Origin: Pyrodictium delaneyi
Lineage (GTDB): Archaea > Thermoproteota > Thermoprotei_A > Sulfolobales > Pyrodictiaceae
DNA: 32,000 nt
Assembly: GCF_001412615.1 (NCBI RefSeq)
Contig: NZ_CP013011.1
Span: 1,020,001 to 1,052,000, forward strand
Reading direction: 5' to 3'
A program made the position numbers and the translations under genes. Below, in pieces: positions 1 through 16,979 of this stretch. Each line of letters starts with the position of its first letter. The stretch's first letter is position 1. The notes under the pieces were generated by a model. That model made no database searches and had not been told where the DNA came from. It saw nothing but the letters and a program-made list of their open reading frames with translations.

Positions 1-42
1 TATACTGGCGAGCCCTTACCTCTACGCTGTACTATCAAGCGC

Positions 43-1449
43 TTACCCATAGCGTAGCACCCGTCCCCAGTGCGTCGCCCCTGGTATACTCTGACTCTTA
101 ACTGTTATCGGTATAGGGAGTATCTTGAAAGGAATCGCTCTCTGCGCCTGCTGGTAGCGGAGAAGAGCTTCGCCAACACCTAGTCTACGAAGCACATCGA
201 GATCCTCATACACGACACCACTATACCTACTGACATCTCTTATGTATACATCATCTACTGATCCGAACATAATCACATTGCTGATATTATTCCATACTTC
301 AGAGCTATAGTCGCTTGGCTGTTGCGATGAAAGAACGAGACTAATATTGCTACTCCTGCCTTCACGAACTAACCTTCTAACAACATCACTGTTCTTAATT
401 CTCCAAAACTCGTCTATTACAAGTACCGAACTCACACTATTGTTTCGAAGCACATCAAAGATGGTATCTAATATAGTTTCTAGCTGGATATACTTTTCAT
501 TCTCACTTAGATACGCCAAGTCTAATACCATAATACCGTGGAAGCTATCACTAAATAAGTTGGAGACAATTAAGTGATGATAACTATATCCATCCTCTAC
601 TACAACATGTTTTGCTAGTCTGGTCCCCTTCAAAAACCTCCAAACATCTCCCTTGGGATCTACCAACACTGCTTTTACGTCGTAAAGTAACGTAGCCAGT
701 AATGCAACTAGGACTGCAAGGGTTGTCTTCCCCCTACCAGTTGGCCCCACAATTAAAGTATGTTGAGCACCCCTATTATCCCATAAAGGTAGCCCGACAA
801 GTTTTCCCAACACCAGGTCGTGTCCGATAGGAACGGTTTTCACACCATCAAGGATCTTACCTAACATGCGTACATACTCCATCCAACTTAAACTCGAGCC
901 TATAATGCTACTGAGTGATTGAATAATATTCCCACTATTGTTTTTTAAAAAACTCACACTTAGGCATTTACGTTTAGGTTTACAACCAAGTACGGCAAGC
1001 ATATCAATAACACTATTGTAATTTTCTTCAATACTTTTTGTACTACCACATACTAGTATGTATAGTGCCGGCTTGACGGGATCATCATAAACCATAATGT
1101 TTTCATATATCTTCCTAAGCACCTCAAGTTTGTTTCTTGCACGCATATTGTTAGGATTGCGTTCTAGCTCAACCTCGTAGGATAGTATTTTGGACTCTAG
1201 AATCCTCGCAGCATAATTACCTCTAACATGTTTATAGAGTAGCATTATGCCACATATTCTTCTATCCAGTAACTTAGATTTGTTGCCCAGTAGCTTTGTG
1301 AAGCATGTCTCGTCGCCCTTAATCTCGATGAGTACGCCAAGAACGCCATCTGTTAGTTCCGAGACACAAAGAGTATTCACAACTTTATCTCTACCCTTTG
1401 TAAGCTTTACTAGCTTGTATAAATACGTAGCAATGGTACTTATAATCAT
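43..1449 (-). CDS. cedB: VirB4/TrbE-like (FtsK-HerA superfamily) secretion ATPase, CedB-like
   Basis: ORF track 43..1461 (472 aa). Walker A LIVGPTGRGKTT and Walker B VLVIDEFW (DExW as in VirB4/TrbE). VDPKGD and SSQQPSD motifs are typical of this ATPase superfamily. No TM segment. Start moved to ATG 1449, which has GGTGAT 5 nt upstream; 1461 is a TTG. Confidence 0.7.
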   Translation of the reverse strand: MIISTIATYLYKLVKLTKGRDKVVNTLCVSELTDGVLGVLIEIKGDETCFTKLLGNKSKLLDRRICGIMLLYKHVRGNYAARILESKILSYEVELERNPNNMRARNKLEVLRKIYENIMVYDDPVKPALYILVCGSTKSIEENYNSVIDMLAVLGCKPKRKCLSVSFLKNNSGNIIQSLSSIIGSSLSWMEYVRMLGKILDGVKTVPIGHDLVLGKLVGLPLWDNRGAQHTLIVGPTGRGKTTLAVLVALLATLLYDVKAVLVDPKGDVWRFLKGTRLAKHVVVEDGYSYHHLIVSNLFSDSFHGIMVLDLAYLSENEKYIQLETILDTIFDVLRNNSVSSVLVIDEFWRIKNSDVVRRLVREGRSSNISLVLSSQQPSDYSSEVWNNISNVIMFGSVDDVYIRDVSRYSGVVYEDLDVLRRLGVGEALLRYQQAQRAIPFKILPIPITVKSQSIPGATHWGRVLRYG

Positions 1450-1454
1450 GTAAA

Positions 1455-1631
1455 TCACCAACTTAGAGTTCTTTTAACAATCATAAATAGAACAATATTT
1501 ATCAATGATATCAGTATTATTGTTATATTTTTTGAATATAATCCCTCAATAACACCATATAATGATAATGCTAAAGCAATATGTAGAGACCTTCTGAATG
1601 TTATATTCGTTATAGCCTTTGTCTGCTTCAT
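1455..1631 (-). CDS. 58-aa small membrane protein missing from the ORF track (occupies the CedA2-like position)
   Basis: My own minus-strand translation: MKQTKAITNITFRRSLHIALALSLYGVIEGLYSKNITIILISLINIVLFMIVKRTLSW. ATG at 1629-1631, TGA at 1455-1457, GGTGA 6 nt upstream of the ATG. Two hydrophobic stretches. It fills the otherwise empty gap between the flanking genes, and its stop lies 5 nt before the ATPase ATG. Confidence 0.55.
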   Translation of the reverse strand: MKQTKAITNITFRRSLHIALALSLYGVIEGLYSKNITIILISLINIVLFMIVKRTLSW

Positions 1632-1656
1632 CCTAATTCACCTTTACTAAGGCTGA

Positions 1657-3096
1657 TTAGTCGAATATTATGCGGGGCGACGATGCACCTATCAGCCTAG
1701 CAAAACTTATGGTCATCATAGACATTATGGTCAAGTATGAAAATACAGTTACAGGAAACGCGGTTCCGTAGACTATGTAGTACACTATCGCGTCCTCCAT
1801 GGTCATGTTAGGGTAATTGTAGCCTTCACTTATTTCTAAATTATATGTATAGTTATCTATTCTTTTATTGAATTTAATGCTAAGTAATTTGATGCCGTCC
1901 GGTACTCTTAGACTGAAAATTATTGTCCTTACTTGCATACCCCTCCAAGGGTTCGTTAGTTCAACTACATTATATTCTTCGAAGAATTCTCTAGCCGGTG
2001 AAATCATGGTCATATTTGCCTTATCTGGGATAGTAATTGTCAACATTATCCATTTCGATTTAGGCTTACACTGTACATTTATCGTATAAACTGTCTGATG
2101 AATATCAGTTATATTGCAACTTCTGACTATCATTAAGCCTACCGGCTCTATAAAGATTGCATCGCTAACCGTGAAATCTAGCCTATACTCTGCCTCATCT
2201 AATTCATAAGTTAGTCTGGCGTCTTCCGGTATGTTAACTATCGATTTTTCTACTCCTAGGTTGTGACCAAGGTATTCAATCTCCACATGGTATTTGCCGC
2301 TTGGAAGCGCTTTTAGTGGCCTAGTTATGTAGTACCCGCCATCCTCATGTATTACGAATCTATATATTCCATTGTTGCCTATATCTATGAATTTTACTAG
2401 CCCTGTAACCGGTCTATACCCATATTTGTCTCTTACAATACCCCACATGTGTACCAGTGCTATAGACTCTGTATAGTTATGAACAAATACTTCGCTCAAA
2501 TAGCTCGTAGCAAGACTACCATATATCAAGGATATCCAATATGGCAAGAATGGTAGCATTACATTACCTACTATTATAAAGGCGAGAAGCGACGCACCAG
2601 CATTCCTACCTATCCTAAAGGGTATTGCCATAAGTGCTATACCGAGAGCAGCCAGTTTAGCTTTAGCAGCTGAAAGTATACTGGCTATTACTATGACTGT
2701 TGCTGCAGCTGTTAACATGCCATAGTGTACTAACATCATAGGTAACATGTATATGCTAAAGAACTTCCCAATTATACTGTGCACTGATGACAGTACACCA
2801 ACAGTTAAACGTGTGATATATTCCATCATTATTATGGCTTTCATTCGCACTTGCATATATGATACTATACTTTCTACCGTGTGTCCACTCATGCTCGCTA
2901 TGGCGTCAGAAAATTTCAGCATAGCAGTGAATAAGGTGATTAATATACTAGCCCATAGACCGTCTTGTATAAGTAGCGGCGCCCAACGCTTTACGCTACG
3001 TAACGGTATTGGAAGCATGTATACAAGTACACCAATGTAGTATGTCAGTACAGCAAGCTGAGCCGCTATGAGCAGAAAGTATGACACAAGCTGCAC
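1657..3096 (-). CDS. cedA: Polytopic membrane protein, VirB6/CedA-like, with a large beta-rich non-membrane domain and a C-terminal TM anchor
   Basis: 479 aa. GTG start at 3096 with GGTGC about 6 nt upstream. About 6-7 hydrophobic helices in residues 1-200. Residues ~205-430 are hydrophilic and beta-rich (e.g. SGKYHVEIEYLGH, resembling carboxypeptidase-regulatory-like sandwiches). Final TM is AIVYYIVYGTAFPVTVFSYLTIMSMM. Operon position lies between the pilin-like gene and the VirB4-like ATPase. Confidence 0.55.
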   Translation of the reverse strand: MQLVSYFLLIAAQLAVLTYYIGVLVYMLPIPLRSVKRWAPLLIQDGLWASILITLFTAMLKFSDAIASMSGHTVESIVSYMQVRMKAIIMMEYITRLTVGVLSSVHSIIGKFFSIYMLPMMLVHYGMLTAAATVIVIASILSAAKAKLAALGIALMAIPFRIGRNAGASLLAFIIVGNVMLPFLPYWISLIYGSLATSYLSEVFVHNYTESIALVHMWGIVRDKYGYRPVTGLVKFIDIGNNGIYRFVIHEDGGYYITRPLKALPSGKYHVEIEYLGHNLGVEKSIVNIPEDARLTYELDEAEYRLDFTVSDAIFIEPVGLMIVRSCNITDIHQTVYTINVQCKPKSKWIMLTITIPDKANMTMISPAREFFEEYNVVELTNPWRGMQVRTIIFSLRVPDGIKLLSIKFNKRIDNYTYNLEISEGYNYPNMTMEDAIVYYIVYGTAFPVTVFSYLTIMSMMTISFARLIGASSPRIIFD

Positions 3097-3113
3097 GACT
3101 TAGCACCCTAGGC

Positions 3114-3383
3114 TTATGCTGTACCGTTGTAGATGACTGGCGGTGGCGACGCAACGGAGCTAACAATATAGGATACCAGTGCAAATATCGAAGAACCGAG
3201 AGCGAGCCAAAATGCTGCCCATACAGCATCCTCTATGAGGTCTTGTCCGGCACGTTTTACTCTCATGAATGGTATGGGTGAGCCTTTTAGTAGCCAACCT
3301 ATACTCCATGTCAGCAGAAACAGACCCCAGGCTATACTCATGACCTTTATGGTTAGAGAGTTTATGAACTCTATAATGTTCAT
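3114..3383 (-). CDS. cedA1: 89-aa two-helix hairpin membrane protein, VirB2/CedA1 pilin-like
   Basis: Two hydrophobic helices (VMSIAWGLFLLTWSIGWLL and AVWAAFWLALGSSIFALVSYIV) joined by a basic loop (PIPFMRVKRAGQD). First gene of the operon; its stop is 18 nt before the next start. AAGGGG lies just upstream of the ATG. Confidence 0.55.
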   Translation of the reverse strand: MNIIEFINSLTIKVMSIAWGLFLLTWSIGWLLKGSPIPFMRVKRAGQDLIEDAVWAAFWLALGSSIFALVSYIVSSVASPPPVIYNGTA

Positions 3384-3470
3384 AATTCCCCTTAAGATAA
3401 GGTGTATAGCATTTCGCTATTGAGGCTGTGCAGAGTGTAAGTATCCGAACTTGCCACCCTTAAAGATGCT

Positions 3471-3480
3471 TTTATATAAA
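3471..3480. promoter_or_regulatory. Palindromic TATA-like element TTTATATAAA between the Lhr stop and the pilin-like gene
   Basis: The only strong A/T box in the 139-nt gap. It sits ~90 nt upstream of ATG 3383, which would imply a 5' UTR (consistent with the SD-like AAGGGG). It could equally be part of the Lhr 3' T-rich region. Confidence 0.25.
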
Positions 3481-3522
3481 TCATAATAATTAACTGGATA
3501 GACATGCTATCAACAATTAGTC

Positions 3523-6393
3523 TTACTTCTCTAACCTGTGCTTATATTTATGATATTTCACCTCAGCTTCCACGAGTGCACGATAAAATGCTTCTTCTCC
3601 AAATACCAGCTTCTGTAAAACACGTTTCGCTGTATGAACACCTACCCCCGTTGATACTAAAGCTTCTATAGCTTTCTTACCGTAGTTTAATACTAATCCA
3701 GCTGCATCCATTACCTCACGCGAAAGCTTCTTTTCACTATTAGAGAGCCTACTGTTATGTTTTATCTTCTCAAGAACAATTTTGGCAACCTCTATACGTT
3801 CCCTTGATAGTGCTGGATAGATCATTCGGGCGCCACAACGCGGACATTCTATTTTATCGCTGAGATGTGATAGTCTTCTTGACCATGTTTTTCCACACAT
3901 TACACACAAGAAGATTACCTCTTTCGACGACAACTTTCTCTTAATCGCTTCGACTAGTATTGTGGAGGGTAAACTATCAACAGAGACACGATCACCAAAT
4001 CTTGCCTCTGCTACAGCATCTTCTGTTATAGGGGATGTGATCCTTAGACTAACTGTTCTTACTTCAACTTTTTTGTTTCTAATCCTTTCAAGGAATGAAT
4101 ATAGAGCATTGATGTCTACTTTTCTTACGTTTATCTCCTTATACGCCTCCTCACCAAGTATAGTATCTTTCAATTTTAGAATAATAGTTTTTATCTGTTT
4201 CAAATTAGTCTCTCTAGTTCTTTTCACAGCGCCTGCACGGAGAGCAACATAGAGTAAAATCCACTGATAGAGCCGACTTCTATAGATAGCCTTACGTAGT
4301 AGATTATCTACATCCTCACGTGTAAAGCTGGCAAGTTTCATCAACGAATCAGCTATAAAACTAGGCCTTTCATGAGATGCCAGCCTAACAGCCACAATGT
4401 ATGGTGTACTCGTAGTTACTGGCGAGTAACCTTTAATCTCAGATATGTAGGCAGATAGTAAATATTCAAGAGCCTTATTACCACGGCTACCGAGGAAACT
4501 ATATATAATGAATGTATCCCCATAGTGCTCTATTACTATTCTTTTATCTGTCGGTAGCGGCAAACCTTTTGATATATGTCTAGTTATTCTGTCTACAATT
4601 ATTCTTCTCGCATTATCATCTAGCGGATAATTGTCTAATACTCTTTCACCAATTTCTTCGTAACGTCGCAAGATGCTACCAAGTTCTCGCGCAACTCCAT
4701 ATTCTACGGGGATTAGGTCACCCTCCCATGCCGGAGGTATTAGACGGTCCTCTCTAGCGGGTTTCACTCTCACATGATCTTCACTGATATCTACTACCTC
4801 CCAGACACGTCCACCTAGTACGAACTTGTCCTCCTTCTCTAGAGTTGCTACAAACTCCTCATCGAGAACACCGAGTTTCTTGCCGCTAGCTACCTCGTAA
4901 ACATTATACTGCCTAGTATCCGGTATCATAGTAACACTAAAGTAGTAGCTCTTACTCATAGACCCTATTGACACTCTTGACTCCTTTGCTCTGGCTATCC
5001 GAGAGCTATCCATATAGTATAATATCTGATATAACTCATCTATGCTAAGATCTCTATAATAACCACTGCTTGTTATAACATTGTAAAGTTTATTTACATC
5101 AATTTCACCAGACTCTATAATCATACCAGCCACTTGATGAATAAGGGCATCATAAGGTTTGTTGTAGAGTGGTATATTCTCCAAGTTACCCCTCATAGCT
5201 CTAGCCGCTATAACTGCAGATTCCAATATATCAAATATGTTGTTAGACGCTACTATTACTCCTCTGGAAACACTGCCCGCTCTATGTCCTGCACGACCTA
5301 CCCGCTGGACAAGCTTCACAACTTGCCTAGGCGACATGTATTGTATAACAAGATCAATACTACCTATATCGATACCAAGTTCAAGACTCGACGTAGCTAC
5401 AAGTGCTTTTATCTTACCGCTCTTAAGCTTCTGCTCAGCGTCTACACGTTTATCACGGCTAAGGCTTCCATGATGCACCTCTATAAACTCGTCACCCACA
5501 ACTTGTTTTAGTAATGCACCTAGAACCTCTGCAGTATCACGAGTGTTTACAAACACTATCACGTTTCCTCGACTCTTTGCAAGGATATTCTTGATTAGAT
5601 TTACTCGTGTCAACGTTTCATTATGAACTCTAGAACGTACGCTGTTAGTGTCATTATTGCTATTCTTAGAGCTATCTCCCGGTGCTGTAACTAGTATACT
5701 ATAACGTTTTTTCGTCTTCTCAGCCTCAATTATCCTGACATATCTTTCACCCATGATTAACTTAGCAACTAGGTATGGATTACTCACAGTGGCTGAAAGA
5801 CCTATAAGCTGGAGCCTAGCCTTAGTATATAACCTAGCAACGCGTTCTAGTGCTAAGGATAGTTCTGCTCCTCGTTTATCTGAAACCAGTTCATGAATCT
5901 CATCAATAACTATATATTTAAGGTTATTTATATTATGTCTGAATTTTTCTACACTAAGTAAGAAGTAGAATGATTCTGGTGTTGTTACCATTATGTGCGG
6001 TGGATTCTCGAGGAACCTTCTCTTCTCCGCAGTAGTACTATCTCCATGCCTAACCTCGAGATCTAGACCAAGACTCGAAGCTATACCTGACATTCGCTTG
6101 AATATATCACGGTTAAGACTACGTAAAGGAGTAATGTATATGCAATATATGCCTCTGGAACGTACACCTATGAGTCTCGAGAGTACGGGAAGAAGGGCGG
6201 CTTCAGTCTTACCACTGCCTGTCGGCGCTATAACTAACACGTTGTTACCTCTAAGAATCTCTGGTATGGCCTTATCTTGTATCTCGGTAGGTTTTACGTA
6301 CCCGTGTTTCTCTAGTACACGCTGAAGTAGCGGGTGTAGCAGTCTAAACGCTCCACTTACTCTACGCTTCTCAATTCTCTCCTGCGCGTTCAT
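3523..6393 (-). CDS. lhr: Lhr-type (aLhr2-like) superfamily-2 DEAH helicase with C-terminal zinc ribbon
   Basis: 956 aa. Motif I APTGSGKT, motif II DEIHE, motif III SAT, motif VI QRVGRAGH. Long DEAD-associated C-terminal region with CVMCGK...CPRCG (CxxC-x17-CxxC). Confidence 0.85.
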   Translation of the reverse strand: MNAQERIEKRRVSGAFRLLHPLLQRVLEKHGYVKPTEIQDKAIPEILRGNNVLVIAPTGSGKTEAALLPVLSRLIGVRSRGIYCIYITPLRSLNRDIFKRMSGIASSLGLDLEVRHGDSTTAEKRRFLENPPHIMVTTPESFYFLLSVEKFRHNINNLKYIVIDEIHELVSDKRGAELSLALERVARLYTKARLQLIGLSATVSNPYLVAKLIMGERYVRIIEAEKTKKRYSILVTAPGDSSKNSNNDTNSVRSRVHNETLTRVNLIKNILAKSRGNVIVFVNTRDTAEVLGALLKQVVGDEFIEVHHGSLSRDKRVDAEQKLKSGKIKALVATSSLELGIDIGSIDLVIQYMSPRQVVKLVQRVGRAGHRAGSVSRGVIVASNNIFDILESAVIAARAMRGNLENIPLYNKPYDALIHQVAGMIIESGEIDVNKLYNVITSSGYYRDLSIDELYQILYYMDSSRIARAKESRVSIGSMSKSYYFSVTMIPDTRQYNVYEVASGKKLGVLDEEFVATLEKEDKFVLGGRVWEVVDISEDHVRVKPAREDRLIPPAWEGDLIPVEYGVARELGSILRRYEEIGERVLDNYPLDDNARRIIVDRITRHISKGLPLPTDKRIVIEHYGDTFIIYSFLGSRGNKALEYLLSAYISEIKGYSPVTTSTPYIVAVRLASHERPSFIADSLMKLASFTREDVDNLLRKAIYRSRLYQWILLYVALRAGAVKRTRETNLKQIKTIILKLKDTILGEEAYKEINVRKVDINALYSFLERIRNKKVEVRTVSLRITSPITEDAVAEARFGDRVSVDSLPSTILVEAIKRKLSSKEVIFLCVMCGKTWSRRLSHLSDKIECPRCGARMIYPALSRERIEVAKIVLEKIKHNSRLSNSEKKLSREVMDAAGLVLNYGKKAIEALVSTGVGVHTAKRVLQKLVFGEEAFYRALVEAEVKYHKYKHRLEK

Positions 6394-6396
6394 AGT

Positions 6397-8328
6397 GTGT
6401 TATTTCACCCTTGTAGCACTACCTTTGCAGCTAGAACCTGGGGGCGCCGCGTTTTGACCAAAGGTAATACCAGCTTATTTACTCGTCTACTATTACTCTC
6501 AATAATCTCGACAACATTGATACTCTTATCTAGAATAATGGATCCTCGCCTATCTATACTACTCTCGACAATATCAACACTACTGGTGCTGGTCGCTAGA
6601 TCCATAATTATTGCGATAGCTGCACTAATCTACAACATTACACTTATACTTTATGTCGTGCCACTGTCACTTACACATAACACCATTATGCAATTAACCT
6701 TGGAGAAAGATGCTTATAGCACAATAATTATTCTGGCAGAAACGACACTCATAGCAATTATGATTGTAACCAAGGTGATGTCATCTCTACGTTCCAAATA
6801 TCATATTGATACATTTATTCGTAATATAGCATATGTTGGCGTGAAAGATGTACTAATATACGCCTTATGTTGTAGACGAAGCTATATCGCGTTATCACTG
6901 ATAACTGCATCTGCTGCTGTATATTCCCTTTCTTCTACTTCACCACTATTCTATACACATAGTGATATGCTGTGCTCCCTTTTACTCTACACTTCCATGG
7001 CATTGGTGCCATTCGCAGTCATACTGGCATCAATAGAAATTTCTGCCACCATTACCGCTATACTTGTAACAGTAGCTGCTGTTGTAGCACCTCAACCCTT
7101 GCTCTTAATGGCGTTTATAGCTATGCTTCCCATAGAGACTACACCAGTCACAATTAAGCTCAAAAAGCGAAACGGGTTTAGCATTGGTTATCTCGAGGCA
7201 GTTCTAGTTGATTCACCTTCACTAAAGTATAATATAGAAGGCCAGAAGTCTTTCTCTACAACACGTAGCTGGTGGTCACCCGCATATCCTACATCATCAT
7301 GGTATAGTGTTAAAATAACTGTAAAAGAGAATCCCCACATCATCGTGACGGGGACTACAGGGTCAGGGAAATCCTTTACAGCAATGCAGTTGACAAGAGC
7401 TATATTGGAGAAATTTGACAATAAAGCAGTACTCATAGTTATAGACCCGCACGGCGAGTATAAGAATCTACTAAACAACCATACAGTAGATATTAGAGTC
7501 GTAGATGCCTCCCAAGAAGCTCCTAACCCCCTGGAACTCATTGGACGAAGCCCACGAGAGCGGGCAGCCGAGCTTGTAGAACTCGTTTCGGAGTTCTACA
7601 ACCTAGGTCCAATTCAAGCAAGGATACTAGAGGACGCCATACTACTATCATACGAGAATGCCGGCATAAGGGATGATGATCCGTCAACGTGGGGGAGATC
7701 GCCACCAACGATTAGAGATGTAATCGCGATACTCGAAGACATGTCTAGACAAGACGCTCGCGCACGCATCGTAGCTATGTACCTGTCGTCTCTAGCGGCA
7801 AAAGCCTTTAGCCAAGACCGTTTACCATTTCCGACACCAGATAGCAGCCTTAGCGCTATTATTTTCGACCTATCTCGGCTAGCTACACGCGAACAGATGG
7901 TACTCTACACTGAAACAATATTATATAAATTGTATAACTTGGTTAAGGCGCTCGGTCCTGCAGATAGTCTACGTTACATACTCCTAGTAGATGAAGCACA
8001 CATTTTCGCGCGTAAGACATCACGGAAAAGAGCAGTCCTACCCTTGATTGCCGCAGAGCTGCGTAAGTATGGTGTCGCATTGATCCTCGTAACTCAACGG
8101 GCAAGCGAACTAGATGAAACAATACTCGCCAATATGGGTACATATATATGTCTAAAACATACAGACACCAGAGAGTCTAAGTTCATAGCAGAGGTTGTAT
8201 CCAAAAACCCTTTGAATAATGACGCTAAAGAGATCCTAGTATATACTTTATCGATTCTACCTAAAGGTTATGCAGTTGTAGGCGATATAGAGATTGAGAC
8301 GCCTCTCCTAGTTAAGCTTCAAGAATGA
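6397..8328 (+). CDS. Membrane-anchored HerA/FtsK-superfamily (DUF87-like) ATPase
   Basis: N-terminal ~250 aa contain ~6-7 hydrophobic helices. The C-terminal half has Walker A VTGTTGSGKS, IDPHGEY, Walker B LLVDEAHIF and LILVTQRASELD (HerA/DUF87 hallmarks). The true start is uncertain: 6397 is a GTG only 3 nt from the divergent Lhr start, and ATG 6538 (MDPRLSIL...) is an alternative. Confidence 0.75.
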   Translation: MLFHPCSTTFAARTWGRRVLTKGNTSLFTRLLLLSIISTTLILLSRIMDPRLSILLSTISTLLVLVARSIIIAIAALIYNITLILYVVPLSLTHNTIMQLTLEKDAYSTIIILAETTLIAIMIVTKVMSSLRSKYHIDTFIRNIAYVGVKDVLIYALCCRRSYIALSLITASAAVYSLSSTSPLFYTHSDMLCSLLLYTSMALVPFAVILASIEISATITAILVTVAAVVAPQPLLLMAFIAMLPIETTPVTIKLKKRNGFSIGYLEAVLVDSPSLKYNIEGQKSFSTTRSWWSPAYPTSSWYSVKITVKENPHIIVTGTTGSGKSFTAMQLTRAILEKFDNKAVLIVIDPHGEYKNLLNNHTVDIRVVDASQEAPNPLELIGRSPRERAAELVELVSEFYNLGPIQARILEDAILLSYENAGIRDDDPSTWGRSPPTIRDVIAILEDMSRQDARARIVAMYLSSLAAKAFSQDRLPFPTPDSSLSAIIFDLSRLATREQMVLYTETILYKLYNLVKALGPADSLRYILLVDEAHIFARKTSRKRAVLPLIAAELRKYGVALILVTQRASELDETILANMGTYICLKHTDTRESKFIAEVVSKNPLNNDAKEILVYTLSILPKGYAVVGDIEIETPLLVKLQE

Positions 8329-8418: not shown

Positions 8419-8664
8419 GTGAAATGCGGCATGTCGGAGGAGGAAGCTATTATCGAAGAAGAAGCTACGTCAGCAACCGTAGAAGAGAGTGAGGAAGTTG
8501 AGGAAGTTATCGACCTCAATGCCGCACTTCTAGAAGCTATGGTCAAACGCACAGAAATACTGGAGAGGTTCACCAAAGGCGAGGTAGACGCGACAGAGGC
8601 TGGTAGCCTTCTAGAGGCAGTAAAGGTGCCATCCCTCGAAAAGAGGCGGAGAAGAAAACGCTAA
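8419..8664 (+). CDS. rpo13: Small acidic protein with helix-turn-helix-like core and KRRRRKR tail; probable RNA polymerase subunit Rpo13
   Basis: 81 aa with an acidic N-terminus (SEEEAIIEEEATSATVEESEEVEEV). The core LNAALLEAMVKRTEILERFTKGEVDATEAGSLLE is followed by a basic tail. The layout matches my memory of Sulfolobus Rpo13. Alternative start ATG 8431 has GGTGA 8 nt upstream. Confidence 0.45.
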   Translation: MKCGMSEEEAIIEEEATSATVEESEEVEEVIDLNAALLEAMVKRTEILERFTKGEVDATEAGSLLEAVKVPSLEKRRRRKR

Positions 8665-8675
8665 ACATCCATGAA

Positions 8676-9056
8676 TTAGAATGCCTTCTTTATTTCGACG
8701 TCATATCCTAGCCCTTTAAGAGCTTCTACTATCGCTTCAACACTTACCCTCCTATCGAAAATTATTACAACATGCTTTTCTTCGTCCCTTTTGTAGAGCT
8801 TAACCTTGTCTATTACTGCATTACCTTTAATATAATCATCAGGTCTATGGGGCGGCGCGATGTAGTCTTTGAACTTCTTGCGCATATACTCATAGAATTC
8901 ATCAAAATTGCGTATATACCTTATAGTCTCTTGCATGTCCGGTGTCATCTTGCCCATGATTTCCGCTATTTTTTCTAAAAGTTTTATAGCATCCTGCGCT
9001 GGTATGTCAACAGACTTGTACTTCGCCATATCGACTTCCACTACCACTTTGGACAT
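8676..9056 (-). CDS. Conserved-looking hypothetical protein (126 aa)
   Basis: ORF track 8676..9089. Start moved to ATG 9056 (MSKVVVEV...) because GGAGGGTGAGAGC lies immediately upstream. K/E/I-rich composition is typical of hyperthermophile proteins. No motif recognised. Confidence 0.6.
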   Translation of the reverse strand: MSKVVVEVDMAKYKSVDIPAQDAIKLLEKIAEIMGKMTPDMQETIRYIRNFDEFYEYMRKKFKDYIAPPHRPDDYIKGNAVIDKVKLYKRDEEKHVVIIFDRRVSVEAIVEALKGLGYDVEIKKAF

Positions 9057-9373
9057 GCTCTCACCCTCCACGTACACTAAGCGCCACATAAGTTATCCTT
9101 TCAAGCCATATATTTTTAATAATACCATTATGCATTCATGGAAAGCGGCTTCATCCCTCGTGCCAGCCTACAAAACGGGGCTTCACCACAGTTCTCCTGT
9201 AATGTGCCCCGCCGCGATTACTGCACACTCATCGGTCAGCCGGTAGTCTAGAATTACGGCCCACCACATAAAGTCTAAGCATCGCTCTACACGATTGTAT
9301 AGCAGGGTTCTACCCCTAGGAGCTTTATAACTCAAAGTGGTAGAGGGTATTCTGCGAGGAAGGGTAGATAGCC

Positions 9374-9647: not shown

Positions 9648-10409
9648 CTATATGCGTGGCGATACCCAGTATATTAATGTGCCTCCGCTTGGCAAGTCAA
9701 AGCTTATCCTCATTGGAAGCGCTTCACCGTATTGCACTGTAACTGTATCGGCAGCCGTTGTAGCCTTTACACTCGCCTTTAGCAGATCTATCGAGTACTT
9801 AGCTTTGACTGGCGTGTTACCAGTAACATCCAGGCTTATGAGGGGCTCACCGACCCGTAGTACTCCCATGTAACGTTTCTGAGCAGACTCTGCATAAACC
9901 TCAATCCTATCCTCATAACTGCTAAACTCTACCTCATCACTAACTATCTTGGCATCATTTATTATGTTCTTGAAGTCGTCCGCCATCATGCGCGCCGTAA
10001 CTGTGAGTTCTACCTGCGGTTCACTAAACTCCTCTACTACGCCCTCACGCAACGGAACGTAGAAACTACGCACTACACCAGTCTTCTTATCTATGAAGTT
10101 TACTTCTAGACGCCTACGTTCTTCATCAAGCTTTAACTCTACTAGGTCATTGCGCGTCCCCCTCTTAGCTATACGGTTAAGCTCGTCAGCTGGCACAATG
10201 AACGTCTTCTTATCCTCATCTAGCTCATATTCCTCGAAAGCCACCATTGGCAACCGTAGTATTATCATAGTAGTCTTATCAGGTGTTAAAGTTCTCACAT
10301 CGATGCCGTCCTGAGTTGCTATGAATGGTATCTCATCCATAACTTTGGCTATTGTCTGGATTATATACTTGAACTTAGTTGCAGCTGGGTATACTGCTCG
10401 AAAGCCCAT
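9648..10409 (-). CDS. pcn: DNA polymerase sliding clamp PCNA
   Basis: 253 aa. PCNA-like sequence throughout by eye (FRAVYPAATKFKYIIQTIAKVMDEIPFIATQDGIDVRTLTPDKTTMI...). Length and two-domain repeat pattern fit archaeal PCNA. Which crenarchaeal paralog it is cannot be told. Confidence 0.85.
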   Translation of the reverse strand: MGFRAVYPAATKFKYIIQTIAKVMDEIPFIATQDGIDVRTLTPDKTTMIILRLPMVAFEEYELDEDKKTFIVPADELNRIAKRGTRNDLVELKLDEERRRLEVNFIDKKTGVVRSFYVPLREGVVEEFSEPQVELTVTARMMADDFKNIINDAKIVSDEVEFSSYEDRIEVYAESAQKRYMGVLRVGEPLISLDVTGNTPVKAKYSIDLLKASVKATTAADTVTVQYGEALPMRISFDLPSGGTLIYWVSPRI

Positions 10410-10488
10410 AGTATCCCCGCTAGGAGAAAACTGGAAGAGGAACCAGCTTTACTATTTCCGACACCTGAGGTATAGGGTCAACTATGCA

Positions 10489-10563
10489 ATGATGCAGCTC
10501 TACCCGCCTCGAGCCCCTCACACATGACGGTTGAGGGGCAGTGAGGACCTTACCACCGGCTGA
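10489..10563 (+). ncRNA. Candidate C/D-box sRNA with an internal hairpin between D' and C'
   Basis: ATGATGC (C, 1 mismatch) - 12 nt - CTCG (weak D') - 29 nt with a perfect 8-bp hairpin - GTGAGGA (C', 1 mismatch) - exactly 12 nt - CTGA (D). Lies in the 178-nt gap between two minus-strand genes. Confidence 0.35.
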
Positions 10564-10587
10564 GCCTTCTCTCAGTTTAGCCATGCT

Positions 10588-11379
10588 TTAGAGCACCTCT
10601 AGCCCCTCCGCGCGCGCTATATCCCTAAATCGCTGTGCATCTTCTCCCATGTACACATTGTTGAACATTATGTAAACTTCTTCAAACCTATATTCATCTA
10701 TATAGCCTCGTACAATCCCGACAAGCCTTCTTAGGTCTTCATCTGTGTATTTGTATTTGTAGTTCACTTCTCTTCCACCAATACCGTGAAGACGTAGATA
10801 CAGAATCTTCTGGCCACTACACACTACTGGTTTTCTCCTAAACGGGTCAACAACATGTATGACTCCTACCCCGCATATTATGTCTTCCAGTATGTCTCTG
10901 TGTTCGTGCCAGTCCCCGCGAGGCTCCCATCCAATAACTATTGTGTTACCCGTATAGCGCGTTGCCAGCATGGAGAACTCCTTAGCGTTTTTGACATTTG
11001 TTTCACTATAGCTGAAGCTTGGTGGCGTCTGCAGCACTACTACTCTTGCACCAAGTATTCTTGCAGCCTCAATAGTCTTTATCCATGCATCTATATTCTC
11101 CTTTGTCGGCTTTAAGTAACCATAGTTCTCTATATTGCCTGTCGGCTTTATACCAGCCCGCCGCCACGTAGGACTTGAGGCTGGATGAGTTATAACCTGC
11201 CACGCTTTAATGTTGAAGACAAAGCTATTAGGCGCCTCTCTACGCCATCGCTCAAGCGTGCTCTTCTGCGGCAGCTTGTAGAATGTTTGCTGTACCTCAA
11301 CGGTATTGAACAACGTGTAGTATTTCTTGCGTGAGAAGGGGAAGCCACAGCAACCAACAAAAACTTTCACACCATCCAT
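10588..11379 (-). CDS. DUF72 (UPF0759) family protein
   Basis: 263 aa. N-terminal VGCCGFP and a later LYLRLHG motif. TIM-barrel-like pattern typical of DUF72. Confidence 0.7.
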   Translation of the reverse strand: MDGVKVFVGCCGFPFSRKKYYTLFNTVEVQQTFYKLPQKSTLERWRREAPNSFVFNIKAWQVITHPASSPTWRRAGIKPTGNIENYGYLKPTKENIDAWIKTIEAARILGARVVVLQTPPSFSYSETNVKNAKEFSMLATRYTGNTIVIGWEPRGDWHEHRDILEDIICGVGVIHVVDPFRRKPVVCSGQKILYLRLHGIGGREVNYKYKYTDEDLRRLVGIVRGYIDEYRFEEVYIMFNNVYMGEDAQRFRDIARAEGLEVL

Positions 11380-11397
11380 GGGGTCCCCTAGTTCCTA

Positions 11398-11820
11398 TTA
11401 GCGCTGGAGAGGCCTGACTTGTATGAATCGGACTTCGTCTAGCTTTGATAGCTCTGTCTTGACCGCATCTATGTCTATACCACTCCGCGATAAATCTATT
11501 ATTATTATACACTCTGCATACTCACCCCGCTTGACAGTAGTACACTGCGTGGTGACTTGATCTACATTAAGCTCGGCCAGTTTCTCAGATGCTTTAGCTA
11601 ACGCACCCGGCACATCTTTAAATTCGATACGCATTTCGAAGAGCTTGCCCTCAGCGCTCGGCAACGGCGTTAATACGATCTCACGCTTATCAGGGTCAGC
11701 TATTAGTATAAGGTTCATACCCTCGATGATGTTTAAAGCTTCCCGAACTACCAGAGGTATTGTCACCCTACCCTTGCTATCAACTTTTACTATCTCAGCT
11801 AGCCGCACTCCTACCACCAT
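11398..11820 (-). CDS. AbrB/SpoVT-like DNA-binding domain fused to an ACT domain
   Basis: 140 aa. N-terminus VKVDSKGRVTIPLVVREALNI (swapped-hairpin AbrB/MazE signature). C-terminus IEFKDVPGALAKASEKLAELNV...IIIIDLS is ACT-like. Confidence 0.7.
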   Translation of the reverse strand: MVVGVRLAEIVKVDSKGRVTIPLVVREALNIIEGMNLILIADPDKREIVLTPLPSAEGKLFEMRIEFKDVPGALAKASEKLAELNVDQVTTQCTTVKRGEYAECIIIIDLSRSGIDIDAVKTELSKLDEVRFIQVRPLQR

Positions 11821-11867
11821 TCCACATGTGGAAATGTAATGAAATAATATAACTTTTTGTCAACACC

Positions 11868-12740
11868 CTACCTGTCCATGTTTTTCTCGACAATCTCTAC
11901 TATTTTCTCTGCAAGCTCTAGTATTGCTTTCGACGCCTTGCTGTCAGGATACTTTACAAAGAATGGCTCGCCGGCATCATTGGCTCGTGATATACGTGGA
12001 TCTATGGGTATCTCGCCGAGGAACCGCACACCGTACTGCTCTGATATCTTCTTAGCTGCACCTTCGCCAAAGATGTAGTGTTTACTACCATCAGGGCATT
12101 CAAAGTAGCTCATGTTCTCTACCACCCCTATTATGTCTACGTTCATCTTACGCGCAAAGTTAATCGCTTTAGCTACGACGACACGAGAGACATCAGATGG
12201 TATTGTAACTATTATTGTGCCGGTAAGATCACGTATAAGCTGCGCTATTGTGAGCTGTTCATCTCCTGTACCTGGCGGGAGATCTATGAACAAGTAATCG
12301 AGTGTACCCCAGTCCGCGTATGCCAACATCTCACGGATAGCTGATGTAGATAAGGTTCCACGCCATATTACTGGCACATCTTCTTGTGGGAGCAGCAGGC
12401 CTATTGAGAGAACCTTTACACCGAGCGGCGCTGTTACTGGTATTATTCTACCATCAGTTGTGGCCATAACTGTTTCTCCTTGTACCCCCATCATCTTTGG
12501 TATCGATGGACCGTAGATGTCGGCGTCTAGCACTCCTACTTTTCTACCTAGATAACTCATAGCGAAGGCCAAGCTAGCAGTGACAAATGATTTACCTACA
12601 CCACCTTTACCGCTGAGGATCGCAACCTTGTACTTAATCTTCTTCATGTTTTCTTGTATCTTTTTCTCTTGTTCACGTATCTTTTTGAATGCCTCTATAC
12701 GCGCTTTAACTTCTGGCGGAATCCTCTGCTGTGACTCCAT
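11868..12740 (-). CDS. Mrp/NBP35/ApbC-family Fe-S cluster carrier ATPase
   Basis: 290 aa. Deviant Walker A ILSGKGGVGKS, DLPPGTGDE switch region, and a CPDG motif after ENMSYFE. Confidence 0.85.
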   Translation of the reverse strand: MESQQRIPPEVKARIEAFKKIREQEKKIQENMKKIKYKVAILSGKGGVGKSFVTASLAFAMSYLGRKVGVLDADIYGPSIPKMMGVQGETVMATTDGRIIPVTAPLGVKVLSIGLLLPQEDVPVIWRGTLSTSAIREMLAYADWGTLDYLFIDLPPGTGDEQLTIAQLIRDLTGTIIVTIPSDVSRVVVAKAINFARKMNVDIIGVVENMSYFECPDGSKHYIFGEGAAKKISEQYGVRFLGEIPIDPRISRANDAGEPFFVKYPDSKASKAILELAEKIVEIVEKNMDR

Positions 12741-12926
12741 ATAGCTTCCCCTAATCGTGGATTCACTACATCTCCGTGTATAGGCTCTACACGATATAAC
12801 GTATTATATTCACACCCTAGTATACTACCACTTAGCAACCTAAGCCAGCAATAGACATGTAAGATAGACCTACTAGTAGCACATAGTCCTATAAGGCAGG
12901 CTGGGGTATAACGAGGGCTACAAGCT

Positions 12927-13610
12927 ATGAGACGAAGTAATCTAGTCAAAAGAACGCTTGCCGTTACTATGTTGAACTACTTGCACAAATTCTACACATA
13001 CAAAGAACTCAGCAAGAAGCTTTCAATACCACAATCTATGATAAGCAGGTATATACGCGGACACAACCTCCCAAGTGAGTATCACGCAGATGCAATAATA
13101 GACTTCTTCATGAAAAGTAGCATCGTTAGAGATTACCTTGGCAAACTCCTTTCTAGAGGCGCTATAGACGAGATAGTCTCAGATAACGACCTACTTGAGA
13201 TATTGGCATTTATATCTCTAGAGAAAGCACGTAAAATAGATCCAGTATTTGATTATATAGTTATAATTAATGATATTTCCTCATTTATAGGTTTGCGCAT
13301 AGCATCACAACTTAGAGCTAAAGTAATTGTTGGATTCATTCCTCCACTCGTCCCTCCCGGTGCAGATCTATGTATAACTATAGGACAGTACATTAATTCG
13401 TTAACTATATGCTTAAAAGCAAGAAATATCGGCAAACTACGTAGATCTAGTGCACTCTTTGTACACCCTCTAACATTACCACTTGAATATAGCATTCATG
13501 TGAAAAGTAAACTCATGGACTTCTTTGGGAATATACGCATACTTGCACCGTTATGCAATAGCAATCTAGATGACGAAAAGATAATCTGCGGCTTTATAAC
13601 GGAGAGCTAG
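12927..13610 (+). CDS. HTH-domain putative transcriptional regulator with uncharacterised C-terminal domain
   Basis: 227 aa. YTYKELSKKLSIPQSMISRYIRGHNLP is an XRE-like HTH. The C-terminal half faintly resembles a phosphoribosyltransferase fold but lacks an acidic PRPP motif (ALFVHPLTLP). Confidence 0.5.
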   Translation: MRRSNLVKRTLAVTMLNYLHKFYTYKELSKKLSIPQSMISRYIRGHNLPSEYHADAIIDFFMKSSIVRDYLGKLLSRGAIDEIVSDNDLLEILAFISLEKARKIDPVFDYIVIINDISSFIGLRIASQLRAKVIVGFIPPLVPPGADLCITIGQYINSLTICLKARNIGKLRRSSALFVHPLTLPLEYSIHVKSKLMDFFGNIRILAPLCNSNLDDEKIICGFITES

Positions 13611-13642
13611 GGTAAATTGTATAGTTGAGAGGCCATTCAGCG

Positions 13643-14143
13643 ATGACCGGGGTTTTAAACACTGATTTACAAGATGATGTCGAACCCACGCAGGGAGCAC
13701 GCTTCTGCAACAATATACTTAGATCGCGAAGCTTAGAGCTAGAGGCATATGCTGAGATAAATGACTGCAAATTACTAATAGTGTATGCTCCAAGTATTTC
13801 TGCAGAAGAGTCAACACCACTACTTGTTGGCTGCATCTATCATGCAATACTACCAATAGATGCTTATGCCACACCAAAACTATTGGAACACGGCGTACTC
13901 ATAGCTACACCATTACGTAACAGAAAAGTAGTAGCACGCATAAACAATCTAGATATAGAGCATACATCATACATATACAAAGACGGCTCGATACTTATCC
14001 TAGTAACCACTAACAGCAATGCCTTGGAAGAAATAATTGATTTCACAAATACTATAGACTTTAATAATATCAACTATTTCTGTGTTAATTCGTTTAACGA
14101 ACTTCCTGATAAAATATATGATGTATTACCTAGCCACAAATAG
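13643..14143 (+). CDS. Hypothetical protein (166 aa)
   Basis: ORF track 13625..14143 begins with TTG; the first ATG is at 13643. AT-rich gene. No motif recognised. Confidence 0.45.
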   Translation: MTGVLNTDLQDDVEPTQGARFCNNILRSRSLELEAYAEINDCKLLIVYAPSISAEESTPLLVGCIYHAILPIDAYATPKLLEHGVLIATPLRNRKVVARINNLDIEHTSYIYKDGSILILVTTNSNALEEIIDFTNTIDFNNINYFCVNSFNELPDKIYDVLPSHK

Positions 14144-14195
14144 CTACATGACAACTATAATACAGTGATGGTTTCAAACCGGCGGAGATGTTGCG

Positions 14196-15809
14196 GTGAG
14201 CAAACAATTGTACCTGAGGTTTAAGATATGCCGTTGGCTCGATAAGGACGAGTTCAAGGACCTAGTCAGATTGGCTTCTTATATTGGTAGGCGTGATGGC
14301 TGCAGCTGGTTCGAGATTAGTTTTAGCAACTCACATGTAGACAAGTTGCTTGATCTACTAGATTCTCTGAAAACATTTGGAGCTGAGTTTGATCAAAGAT
14401 CTAAGCAAATTGTAGATAAACTTCTGGCTGAAGCCAATACTGTTGAAATAGATGCTTCTACTTCAGGATTCCTAGTAAGATCTAGAAGGCTTCTCTTAGA
14501 TTACCTCTCCACTTTCCGTGCAAAAGGCTTAGTTAGGTATTCAAGAAATTACAGAGGCTTTATAGTTAAACCATATGCTATTGTAGATGTCATTGACCGG
14601 TTACAACGCGAAGGATTTAAGGTGAAAGATAATACTGGTCTCCTTTATTCCAAGAAAACTCTCAACATAGTGTTTAATGGTAAGTTACGTAGCTACCAGG
14701 AGGAGGCCATCAATGCCTGGCGTGAGAACCGCTATAGAGGTGTAATAGCTCTACCTACTGGATCTGGTAAAACCATAGTGGCATTAGCAGCCATGGTTAC
14801 TCTATCCGTCCCTACACTCATAGTTGTTTATACACGCGAACAGCTGAATGAATGGGCTGAAAAGATAGTCAAGTTTACTAATCTTGATAAAAATAATATA
14901 GGACTATTCTATTCTGAACAAAAATCTATTAAATTAATTACTATAGCTACATATCAATCTGCCTTTAGAAATATAGATATATTATTCGACAAGTTCTCAT
15001 TACTGATAGTTGATGAAGCACATCATTTACCTGCAGAAAAGTTCAGAGCAATTGCCGAGTCTATACTAGCCCCTTACAGGCTTGGATTATCCGCGACACC
15101 ATATAGAGAAGACGGGCGTCACGAAGAACTCTTCCGACTTGTAGGAGGTGTTGTATACGAACGTTCTCTTAGTGAGCTATTAGAGGAAGGATTCATCGCC
15201 TCTTTCGAGATCGTACCGGTACTTGTCCAGCTCGAAAGAAAGGAATTCGAAGAGTATAAAAAGTTAAAGAAAAAGTTTATAGTTATGGCGCGTGGAAGGA
15301 AGGTGGACGAGCTCGTTAAAGCAGCCTCCGCAGGCGACGATTCAGCTAAACAAGCTCTTCAATTACTCTCACGCATAAGACGTGTCCTAGCGTTATCTAA
15401 ATCCAAGGTAGAGGAGGCACGACGAATCGTTGAAAACGAGCTTGCAAAGGGCTCAAAGATAATAATATTTACACAGTATGTTGATCAAGCTGAGACTATA
15501 GGAAAGGAGCTTGGCATCCCTGTGGTCACAGGCAAGACAGAGAAACACAAACGGAGGATAATCTTCGAGTTATATAAGCGTGGACGTTTCAGAGCCATAG
15601 TCTTGACCACCGTTGGCGATGAAGGCATTGATATACCAGATGCCAATGTAGGAATAGTTTTGTCTGGAACTTCCTCGCGTAGACAGTTCATCCAGAGACT
15701 CGGGAGATTGCTTAGACCCCAACCAGGTAAGGTGGCAAAGCTATACTATATTGCTGTAAAGGGGACTCAAGAAGAAACAGCTCTTAAAAAGCTTCTCAAT
15801 TCTATATAA
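14196..15809 (+). CDS. xpb: XPB/Rad25 (SF2) DNA repair helicase
   Basis: 537 aa, GTG start. Motif I ALPTGSGKT, motif II VDEAHH, SATPYREDG (the XPB RED motif), motif VI QRLGRLLR. N-terminal ~150-aa damage-recognition-like domain. Confidence 0.85.
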   Translation: MSKQLYLRFKICRWLDKDEFKDLVRLASYIGRRDGCSWFEISFSNSHVDKLLDLLDSLKTFGAEFDQRSKQIVDKLLAEANTVEIDASTSGFLVRSRRLLLDYLSTFRAKGLVRYSRNYRGFIVKPYAIVDVIDRLQREGFKVKDNTGLLYSKKTLNIVFNGKLRSYQEEAINAWRENRYRGVIALPTGSGKTIVALAAMVTLSVPTLIVVYTREQLNEWAEKIVKFTNLDKNNIGLFYSEQKSIKLITIATYQSAFRNIDILFDKFSLLIVDEAHHLPAEKFRAIAESILAPYRLGLSATPYREDGRHEELFRLVGGVVYERSLSELLEEGFIASFEIVPVLVQLERKEFEEYKKLKKKFIVMARGRKVDELVKAASAGDDSAKQALQLLSRIRRVLALSKSKVEEARRIVENELAKGSKIIIFTQYVDQAETIGKELGIPVVTGKTEKHKRRIIFELYKRGRFRAIVLTTVGDEGIDIPDANVGIVLSGTSSRRQFIQRLGRLLRPQPGKVAKLYYIAVKGTQEETALKKLLNSI

Positions 15810-15947
15810 GTCCTACAAACCACTATCCATGGCCAGGTATAGGGTTATGTTATGACTAGGCTAGGCTGTATTCGGAAGATAGGCGCGTAATGCAATATAA
15901 GGCGTGGTGTTGCAGCATTGGCGATAGGAGAAGGAGGGGCTACTTGT

Positions 15948-16958
15948 ATGAGCAGTGGCAGTCTACAATTGTACCTTAGCGGCAACGGTAATATTGATCT
16001 ATTGTATGATAATAGCTTGCCAGAGATAACTCTTGGAGGGGCGGGACACCCCACTAGCTATACAGTTACATTCGAACATATATTAAAGACAAGATCCATA
16101 GATAAGGCTCTTCTCGAGCTAGGCATTAGAGTAGCATCCATGGAAATACCTAGGTGGAAGATATCATTTAACGATGTTGTGCTCACACGGGAGTTCAAAC
16201 CTTTACTCTGTGTTGAGATAAGCAATGGGTACTTCTGCAAGATAGTTTTCGATGTGACACCCATTGTAACTTCAAAGGATAGCAGCCAACACAAAGTAGA
16301 CATAGAATACATCGGTGTAAAAGAATTATCTATAGATCACATAGGTCTTCTCATGCTGGGCTCCTATGAAGAAGCTATGTCGATCTATAGTTATTGGAGC
16401 GGCGCTGTATCTCTCCAACCTGGATCAGCGACAGATATCGAGCTTCCGTACGAGTTCGAGCATGCAAAGGCAAAGATTATCGCTTATCTACCTCACAGCG
16501 ATGCCAAGTTACTCATTAGTTCTGACTCTGTTAACACTATAATAGAGAGAACAACTGGTATGAACGAGTTAATTGTTGATCTGGGCACAACCAAGAGGTT
16601 AAAGCTTGAGCATAGAGGAACTGGCAGTTACTACCCAAGGGAGATACTGTTGTCATCTATCCTTGTGTACCAGATGAACGTTCCTGAGCCCAGCATAGAT
16701 GTAAATCATAGAATTGTAAACGATATTGCCGAGATACAGTTATCTAACAGCGGCAGTGATGCAGCCGAGAATGTTGTTGTAGTATCTATAGCTGTTGGAA
16801 ATGTTATAGACAGAAAGGTCCTGGGTAAGCTTGAGCCCGGCGATGCTAAGAAGCTACAGCTCAAGATAAAGCATGGAGCTATAAATACGATTCGTGTAAT
16901 ATGGAAACATAGGGGCAAGACGTTCTTTAAGGACTTAAAAGTTAGAACCGAAAGCTAA
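15948..16958 (+). CDS. Hypothetical protein with C-terminal CARDB-like beta-sandwich
   Basis: ORF track 15918..16958 (TTG). ATG 15948 is preceded by GGAGAAGGAGGGG. The C-terminus IAEIQLSNSGSDAAENVVVVSIAVGNVIDRKVLGKLEPGDAKKLQLKI resembles CARDB domains. No signal peptide seen. Confidence 0.5.
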   Translation: MSSGSLQLYLSGNGNIDLLYDNSLPEITLGGAGHPTSYTVTFEHILKTRSIDKALLELGIRVASMEIPRWKISFNDVVLTREFKPLLCVEISNGYFCKIVFDVTPIVTSKDSSQHKVDIEYIGVKELSIDHIGLLMLGSYEEAMSIYSYWSGAVSLQPGSATDIELPYEFEHAKAKIIAYLPHSDAKLLISSDSVNTIIERTTGMNELIVDLGTTKRLKLEHRGTGSYYPREILLSSILVYQMNVPEPSIDVNHRIVNDIAEIQLSNSGSDAAENVVVVSIAVGNVIDRKVLGKLEPGDAKKLQLKIKHGAINTIRVIWKHRGKTFFKDLKVRTES

Positions 16959-16979
16959 CTCCATATCCTCATAGTCACA

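Follow-up and report, generated by a model that had tools for sequence, protein, structure and literature searches.

The DNA stretch analysed here (the window) comprises 32,000 nucleotides (nt) of the archaeon Pyrodictium delaneyi (contig NZ_CP013011.1, positions 1,020,001 to 1,052,000). Coordinates refer to this window unless another locus is named. Two divergent genes near its left end encode an Lhr-type helicase and a membrane ATPase, respectively. X is the name given here to the uncharacterised family of the ATPase gene, 6538-8328 (+). The pair lies between an operon related to the Ced DNA-import system, on the helicase side, and genes encoding an Rpo13-like protein and the sliding clamp PCNA, on the ATPase side (Table 1). 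The first-pass annotation regarded the helicase and the ATPase as a possible accessory module of the Ced machinery. The comparison of X loci indicates a different grouping: X is conserved as a unit with aLhr1, to which rpo13 and PCNA are linked, and not as a unit with Ced.

The helicase gene has an intact core of superfamily 2 (SF2; Pfam DEAD, 1.6e-40; Helicase_C, 2.9e-21), with motifs I (APTGSGKT), II (DEIH) and III (SAT). It also encodes the Lhr winged helix (PF19306, 8e-20) and domain 4 (DEAD_assoc, PF08494, 2.5e-28). A C-terminal zinc ribbon (CxxC...CxxC, residues 830-853, nt 3835-3906) is conserved in eight orthologues, including that of S. islandicus. The aLhr1 group is recognised by an additional cysteine-rich zinc-finger region at the C-terminus (PMC8301817). 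All three features of this group (core, winged helix with domain 4, zinc finger) being present, gene 3523-6393 is assigned from its sequence as an ordinary aLhr1. It has the same Lhr core and zinc-finger C-terminus as the aLhr1 helicases SSO0394, Saci_0814 and SiRe_1605, with no difference of note. It is 33% identical to the Lhr that adjoins X in S. islandicus and is the syntenic counterpart of that aLhr1 gene, published as SiRe_1605 / C3MR20 (PMC8301817). Deletion mutants of aLhr1 are sensitive to H2O2 and methyl methanesulfonate (MMS), and aLhr1 is among the candidate interactors of the complex of SSB (a protein that binds single-stranded DNA, ssDNA) with ssDNA (PMC10003305). aLhr1, the constant partner of X, is known so far by its DNA-repair phenotypes. 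A published survey of aLhr1 neighbourhoods, based on TIGRFAM annotation, found no neighbour conserved in all archaeal genomes (PMC8301817).

The longest open reading frame (ORF) of X (6397-8328, +) begins at a GTG at 6397. The start first proposed for X, essentially at the Lhr start codon, is an artefact of this choice of the longest ORF. A 92%-identical homologue (P0001) starts with MDPRL, which corresponds to the ATG at 6538; an in-frame TTG at 6517 is another possible start. The homologues support ATG 6538 as the probable start of X. The divergent gap between Lhr and X is then about 120-144 nt in the window; it measures 34-144 nt in other genomes. The ATPase motifs (GTTGSGKS, DPHGEY, VDEAH, VTQR) read exactly as first quoted. 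X matches Pfam DUF87/HerA (E=4e-14) and also HerA_C. Among 78 representatives of the family, residues G272, G275, G277, K278, E486, R509 and Q520 are invariant and D485 is nearly so. X thus carries the Walker A, the Walker B and the conserved arginine and glutamine that define the FtsK-HerA superfamily.

The membrane region of about 250 amino acids (aa) first described at the N-terminus of X is also found: about 6-8 hydrophobic helices are present within the N-terminal ~210-250 residues. The AlphaFold model of X, built with 21 sequences, has a mean predicted local distance difference test (pLDDT) score of 79.9. It includes about ten helices (residues 3-209, pLDDT 50-79) and a small stretch of beta structure, and its ATPase domain is modelled with confidence. 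Modelled alone, the membrane domain has a pLDDT of 57 and a predicted template modelling (pTM) score of 0.38. The possibility that this domain is a fused CedA/VirB6-like channel was rejected (profile-profile probability 0.1%).

An exhaustive search of 1.84 billion cluster representatives returned 73 proteins with E<=1e-30 to X. Nearly all of the ~80 best cluster representatives (50% identity) share one architecture, with a length of 520-660 aa and the Walker A motif at residue 200-330; 4-8 membrane segments are predicted for most family members. The score drops from 309 bits for the last X member to 120 bits for the next relatives; the family is therefore sharply bounded. None of 153 X-related cluster representatives reached any NCBIfam family at E<=1e-40. 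The named members belong to Pyrodictium, Hyperthermus, Thermogladius, Desulfurococcaceae, Acidilobales and Sulfolobales. X is the single best-scoring protein in every Sulfolobales genus returned (Saccharolobus, Sulfolobus, Metallosphaera, Sulfuracidifex, Sulfurisphaera, Acidianus, Stygiolobus), genetic model organisms included. Databases annotate its members only as "ATP-binding" or "DUF87" proteins. Other searches added few loci: a single-protein search of genome contigs with X gave only three close loci, a word-indexed profile search gave only three further relatives, and a metagenome scan with the alignment of 21 sequences gave mostly canonical soluble HerA. Searches of the literature with locus tags and aLhr1 returned nothing on family X. 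X is a distinct paralogous membrane family of HerA/VirB4 type that has an N-terminal domain of its own and keeps a helicase as conserved partner; it is apparently unstudied as far as the searchable literature shows.

X loci were compared in 12 lineages. In 11 of them, PCNA is found downstream of X at a distance of no more than 2 kb, and rpo13 and/or PCNA follow X in 11. Lhr is divergent from X in eight lineages, to which can be added Thermogladius, where Lhr is 7 kb off. Five lineages, all of Desulfurococcales type, have ced at less than 5 kb from X, in four gene orders. The most constant neighbours of X are rpo13 and PCNA, then Lhr, and ced comes third. The pairing of the helicase with the membrane ATPase, seen first in one genome, thus recurs well beyond it (Lhr-X in 8/12 lineages). 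Its tie to Ced stood only in part (5/12 lineages, none in the Sulfolobales locus), and part of the company kept by X, namely rpo13 and PCNA, is unrelated to import.

In Pyrodictiaceae (the window, P. abyssi, H. butylicus and six metagenomic loci), the gene order is rpl2-rps19, cedB, (small ORF), cedA, cedA1, Lhr and, divergently, X, rpo13, p137, p81, PCNA. Locus L109 has this order without Lhr, and cedA1 is directly divergent from X. Loci L108 and L026 have cedA-cedA1, a PAPS-reductase-like gene, Lhr and X. The order in L110 is Lhr, X, small ORF, p126, PCNA, Alba, a transferase, cedA1-cedA-cedB, rpl3-rpl4; the gene after X overlaps it by 4 nt. One inversion of the block from Lhr to PCNA would account for the difference between this arrangement and that of Pyrodictiaceae. 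L021, L027 and L028/29 have Lhr, X and PCNA; ced is not in the available flanks. L025 has X-p137-PCNA without Lhr, and Thermogladius calderae (L107) has X-PCNA with the distant Lhr mentioned above. L030, a distant member, has X alone among pyrimidine-synthesis genes. In S. islandicus (L105/106), the order is Lhr, X, rpo13, PCNA, with S-layer, Cbf5 and riboflavin genes around and no ced; rpo13 begins at the base after the X stop codon and PCNA 12 nt later.

Lhr and X could be neighbours through inherited gene order only, with no joint function. In favour of this explanation, synteny within Pyrodictiaceae covers everything from the ribosomal genes to PCNA, DUF72 and Mrp, and Lhr is missing or has moved away from X in four lineages. 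The comparison of the window with S. islandicus argues the other way: among 12 window proteins compared, only Lhr, X, rpo13 and PCNA are still together, every other one being gone. The head-to-head orientation of Lhr and X and their short shared gap are also kept. Mere inheritance of order is considered unlikely. Inferring function from adjacency calls for caution in the compact and strongly syntenic genomes of Pyrodictiaceae. Lhr-X-rpo13-PCNA is a chromosomal block of housekeeping type, shared by Sulfolobales, Desulfurococcales/Pyrodictiaceae and Acidilobales, and does not belong to the Ced operon as a dedicated component. In Desulfurococcales-type genomes, ced simply adjoins the block, between it and the ribosomal-protein operon.

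The best PDB fold matches of X are the DndH/DptH C-domain (top), the VirB4 C-domain of T. pseudethanolicus (4ag5, TM-score 0.72 on the target), S. solfataricus HerA and the HerA-NurA and SIR2-HerA complexes. In a profile search of PDB sequences, HerA proteins (102-115 bits) are the strongest sequence matches among solved structures; VirB4 scores 75.7 bits. VirD4/TrwB (PF10412, 1e9r) aligns with X only at residues ~263-361, that is, at the P-loop. FtsK (PF01580, structures) aligns over a P-loop stretch of ~45 residues only, the gamma domain being unmatched. TrwB and FtsK are absent from the 50 best fold matches. X is a HerA/VirB4-clade ATPase and not a member of the VirD4/TrwB or FtsK families; the likeness to VirD4 suggested at first does not go beyond the overall plan.

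X shares the overall plan of FtsK/SpoIIIE and VirD4/TrwB (N-terminal membrane anchor, C-terminal ring ATPase of the FtsK-HerA superfamily). Canonical HerA has a soluble N-terminal barrel, whereas X has membrane helices in its place. X differs from the HerA-NurA system in having no NurA neighbour (none is annotated in the X loci with precomputed Pfam gene tables) and in its score on NCBIfam HerA (69 bits, cut-off 970). CedB and VirB4 have the same ATPase fold, but their VirB4-type N-terminal domain is not found in X, whose 49.8 bits on NCBIfam CedB (cut-off 700) place it outside VirB4/CedB.

The top fold match to DndH/DptH raises the question of defence. The pair could be an anti-virus module of the HerA-plus-helicase type. 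PADLOC gives matches at superfamily level (Lhr to BrxHI, SngC and DpdJ; X to mad8, HerA and DndH). The pair was found wherever it was looked for in the sampled named taxa, in stable synteny with housekeeping genes, and the examined loci showed neither a nuclease or effector partner nor island features. A defence role is extremely improbable. A foreign or AT-rich island was likewise rejected, on the small difference in GC content, the low third-position GC elsewhere in the window and the stable synteny. The block at 1-8328 had been described as more AT-rich than the rest of the window; it is slightly so (40.7% vs 44.5% GC), which is not distinctive, third-position GC being equally low in XPB, Hjc, PINA and other genes further along.

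CedD (Saci_0667 / SiRe_1715), reported in 2025, is a membrane-bound HerA/VirB4-type ATPase, called VirD4-like and essential for DNA import (PMC11823120, PMC11868833). The earlier premise that Ced systems lack a VirD4-like coupling ATPase is thus outdated. The hypothesis that X is CedD itself was rejected, since the two are separate genes in S. islandicus and the scores are far under the cut-off. On the CedD model (NF053655, equivalog cut-off 600 bits), X of the window scores 60.7 bits and the S. islandicus X orthologue (P0123; UniProt C3MR19 in strain L.S.2.15) 40.2 bits. P0123 is directly divergent from an Lhr bearing the aLhr1 zinc ribbon. The cedD gene is SiRe_1715, two genes from tfb3 (PMC11868833). 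The S. islandicus X locus and cedD are about 110 locus tags apart. No protein reaching the CedD model was found among the 150 closest cluster representatives of X. CedD and X, both membrane ATPases, belong to the same clade and occur in the same archaeal orders; X differs by its large polytopic N-domain and by its absence from the damage-induced list. By sequence comparison, X is a more distant paralogue of CedD within one clade. A related arrangement is that of TedD, a HerA-like ATPase encoded in the Ted loci of Thermoproteales beside a Ced-like DNA-import system and described as a CedD homologue (PMC9905601, PMC11823120).

These data bear on the proposal that X serves Ced import as an accessory or coupling motor, alone or together with Lhr, acting beside CedA/CedB and feeding incoming DNA to Lhr. 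The proximity of ced in five lineages and four arrangements is in its favour, including L109, where cedA1 is directly divergent from X, and L110, where ced lies beyond PCNA. CedD is also the best-scoring curated family for most X members (47-101 bits for members other than those cited above), all named X-bearing taxa are in orders reported to have Ced (PMC11823120), and HerA-like ATPases also occur in the Ted loci of Thermoproteales (PMC9905601). Against the proposal, the S. islandicus block that represents Sulfolobales is unlinked from cedA, cedB and cedD, and Thermogladius and L021 have no ced within 10 kb of X on either side. The Sulfolobales are the organisms in which Ced was dissected genetically.

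A published table lists the S. islandicus genes whose expression rises more than 30-fold upon DNA damage (4-nitroquinoline 1-oxide, NQO). It contains cedA, cedA1, cedA2, cedB, cedD and cedE; SiRe_1604-1606, the X/aLhr1 locus, is missing from it. The VirD4-like role is already filled by import-essential CedD. Ribosomal-protein genes are also conserved next to ced: rpl2-rps19 adjoin cedB in Pyrodictiaceae and L109, and in L108 and L110 at least one gene separates rpl3-rpl4 from ced. In these genomes, adjacency therefore says little about function. Both the neighbourhood and the induction data weaken the idea of a Ced accessory, which is considered unlikely.

The favoured interpretation, held to be somewhat better than an even bet, is that X is a membrane-anchored ring ATPase which moves nucleic acid together with aLhr1 and is expressed with rpo13 and PCNA, outside the damage-induced Ced regulon. 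X would form a membrane-anchored ring, as its HerA/VirB4 relatives suggest. This ring would use ATP to move nucleic acid, presumably DNA, at the membrane. aLhr1 would unwind DNA or hand it over, putatively in cooperation with X. Expression of X and aLhr1 is probably constitutive, together with rpo13 and PCNA. Several points weigh against this interpretation. All 12 sampled lineages possibly form one fairly compact archaeal clade, and the conserved order may partly be inherited synteny. X has no adjacent Lhr in L025, L109 and L030, and the Lhr of Thermogladius is remote. The absence of damage induction is indirect evidence, drawn from one published table with a 30-fold threshold. The presence of ced near the block in five lineages and four gene orders could reflect selection for proximity.

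Two other functions at the membrane have to be weighed. In the exchange of chromosomal DNA between archaea, DNA leaves the donor and is processed at the membrane; according to Wu et al., its export depends on "unknown ATPases". X could be this missing donor-side motor, a constitutive membrane ATPase exporting ssDNA to the Ced pilus of a neighbouring cell, with aLhr1 unwinding the chromosome and the membrane domain of X serving as a channel. X is embedded in the membrane, and its own multi-helix domain could line a channel. Its apparently constitutive expression would fit if donors need no induction, which is an assumption. Its distribution coincides with the orders that bear Ced; shared ancestry explains this distribution equally well, and the model of the membrane domain, a putative pore, has low confidence. 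Such a donor-side function is quite improbable.

X could alternatively act in the manner of FtsK, clearing or resolving chromosomal DNA together with aLhr1 during the cell cycle, at the membrane or the division site. Its architecture, membrane helices plus a ring ATPase of the same superfamily, parallels that of FtsK/SpoIIIE, and X is tightly linked to PCNA. In S. islandicus, the cell-cycle regulator aCcr1 has a ccr-2 box in the Lhr promoter, and its overexpression lowers the expression of Lhr (PMC9976892). This promoter is the intergenic region shared by Lhr and X, a gap of 39 nt (L105 9962-10000) common to both genes. The restriction of the FtsK similarity to the P-loop argues against this function, as does the transcript of Saci_0814, scored as non-cyclic; it is rated as distinctly unlikely. 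The pair is a concrete and testable candidate for DNA transfer or for another DNA transaction linked to the membrane, for example chromosome clearance at division. A role in DNA exchange is possible and unproven; the paired genes are kept in many heat-loving archaea, next to core replication genes, and lie beside ced only sometimes.

Table 1. Features of the helicase-ATPase pair and of its flanks in the window.
Feature	Position	Strand	Basis or remark
CedB-like VirB4/HerA-type ATPase, 472 aa, at the end of the ced operon	43..1461	-	NCBIfam CedB 84 bits (cut-off 700); Pfam AAA_10
ORF of 58 aa with two hydrophobic helices, between cedA and cedB	1455..1631	-	No Pfam match
CedA-like polytopic membrane protein, 479 aa	1657..3096	-	NCBIfam CedA 126 bits, residues 4-197 only
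CedA1 pilin-like protein, 89 aa	3114..3383	-	NCBIfam CedA1 131.5 bits (cut-off 100)
Gap between Lhr and cedA1, 139 nt, with TATA-like TTTATATAAAA and purine-rich AAGGGG right before the cedA1 ATG	3384..3522	-	Direct sequence reading
aLhr1-type Lhr helicase, 956 aa	3523..6393	-	Pfam DEAD, Helicase_C, WH_Lhr, DEAD_assoc
Intergenic (promoter) region between the divergent genes Lhr and X, shared by both	6394..6537	.	X start from homologue P0001
X, N-terminal polytopic membrane domain, about 6-8 helices	6538..7164	+	Hydropathy; AlphaFold2 model
X, beta linker and HerA/VirB4-clade ATPase domain	7177..8328	+	Pfam, model, fold and profile searches
X ATPase motifs	Walker A 7351-7374; DPHGEY 7444-7461; Walker B 7987-8001; RKYG 8056-8073; TQR 8089-8100	+	
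Rpo13-like small protein	8419..8664	+	Pfam RNA_pol_Rpo13 25.3 bits (cut-off 25)
p137, conserved protein, no family match	8676..9089	-	Between X/Rpo13 and PCNA
PCNA sliding clamp	9648..10409	-	NCBIfam sliding clamp 330 bits (cut-off 267)

The genes next to the helicase encode CedA1, CedA and CedB together, which identifies them as a ced operon: CedA1 is above its cut-off, and CedA and CedB are the best matches of their proteins, below the cut-offs. The trio cedA1-cedA-cedB recurs in related loci. As first annotated, the helicase lies on the same strand as the pilin-like gene, now matched to CedA1, and 139 nt from its ATG. The operon probably has its own promoter in this gap, as judged from the sequence elements listed in Table 1. 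Orthologues of the CedB-like gene are found at the same position in all Pyrodictiaceae loci. ORFs of 49-81 aa occupy the place of the 58-aa ORF in six loci (L017, L018, L019, L023, L024, L109); the latter could be a candidate second pilin-like Ced subunit (CedA2-like). Orthologues of the CedA-like protein are matched by the Pfam CedA1 family. The NCBIfam CedA model covers 259 aa, and CedA of the window carries ~250 more residues, mostly non-hydrophobic, plus a final membrane helix; orthologues of 465-515 aa are found in all Desulfurococcales-type loci. The extra C-terminal part may be an extracellular domain. Nothing on the occurrence of Ced in Thermogladius and Staphylothermus came up in a literature search.

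Some other genes recur near X or Lhr. In four lineages (L021 5135-7105; L026 2283-4196; L108 5087-7084; L107 from 21676), the 3' end of Lhr adjoins a gene for a PAPS-reductase-like protein of ~660 aa with a 4Fe-4S domain (NCBIfam PRK13795, "hypothetical protein"). This position is that of the ced operon in Pyrodictiaceae. In L025, a close lineage lacking Lhr, a 2.4-kb stretch directly upstream of X (3806-6263) is AT-rich (33% GC), free of ORFs and non-coding apart from one tRNA, and contains no remnant of Lhr. In three Altiarchaeales loci (L007, L011, L013), a gene encoding a soluble HerA-like ATPase lies 2-6 kb from that of an SF2 helicase weakly similar to Lhr; this pairing may be unrelated to Lhr-X.

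Downstream of X, the Rpo13-like protein of the window is close to the cut-off of its family; rpo13 of S. islandicus scores 69 bits on the same model. p137 (31-80% identity) is found in every Desulfurococcales-type locus between X/Rpo13 and PCNA; the S. islandicus locus lacks it. The region 9648-23865, which starts with PCNA, is dense in replication and repair genes. It includes XPB (14196-15809), beside a 346-aa protein without family match at the position of Bax1, then Hjc (17049-17486), PINA (17508-19067, 697 bits) and a family-B DNA polymerase (20836-23865).

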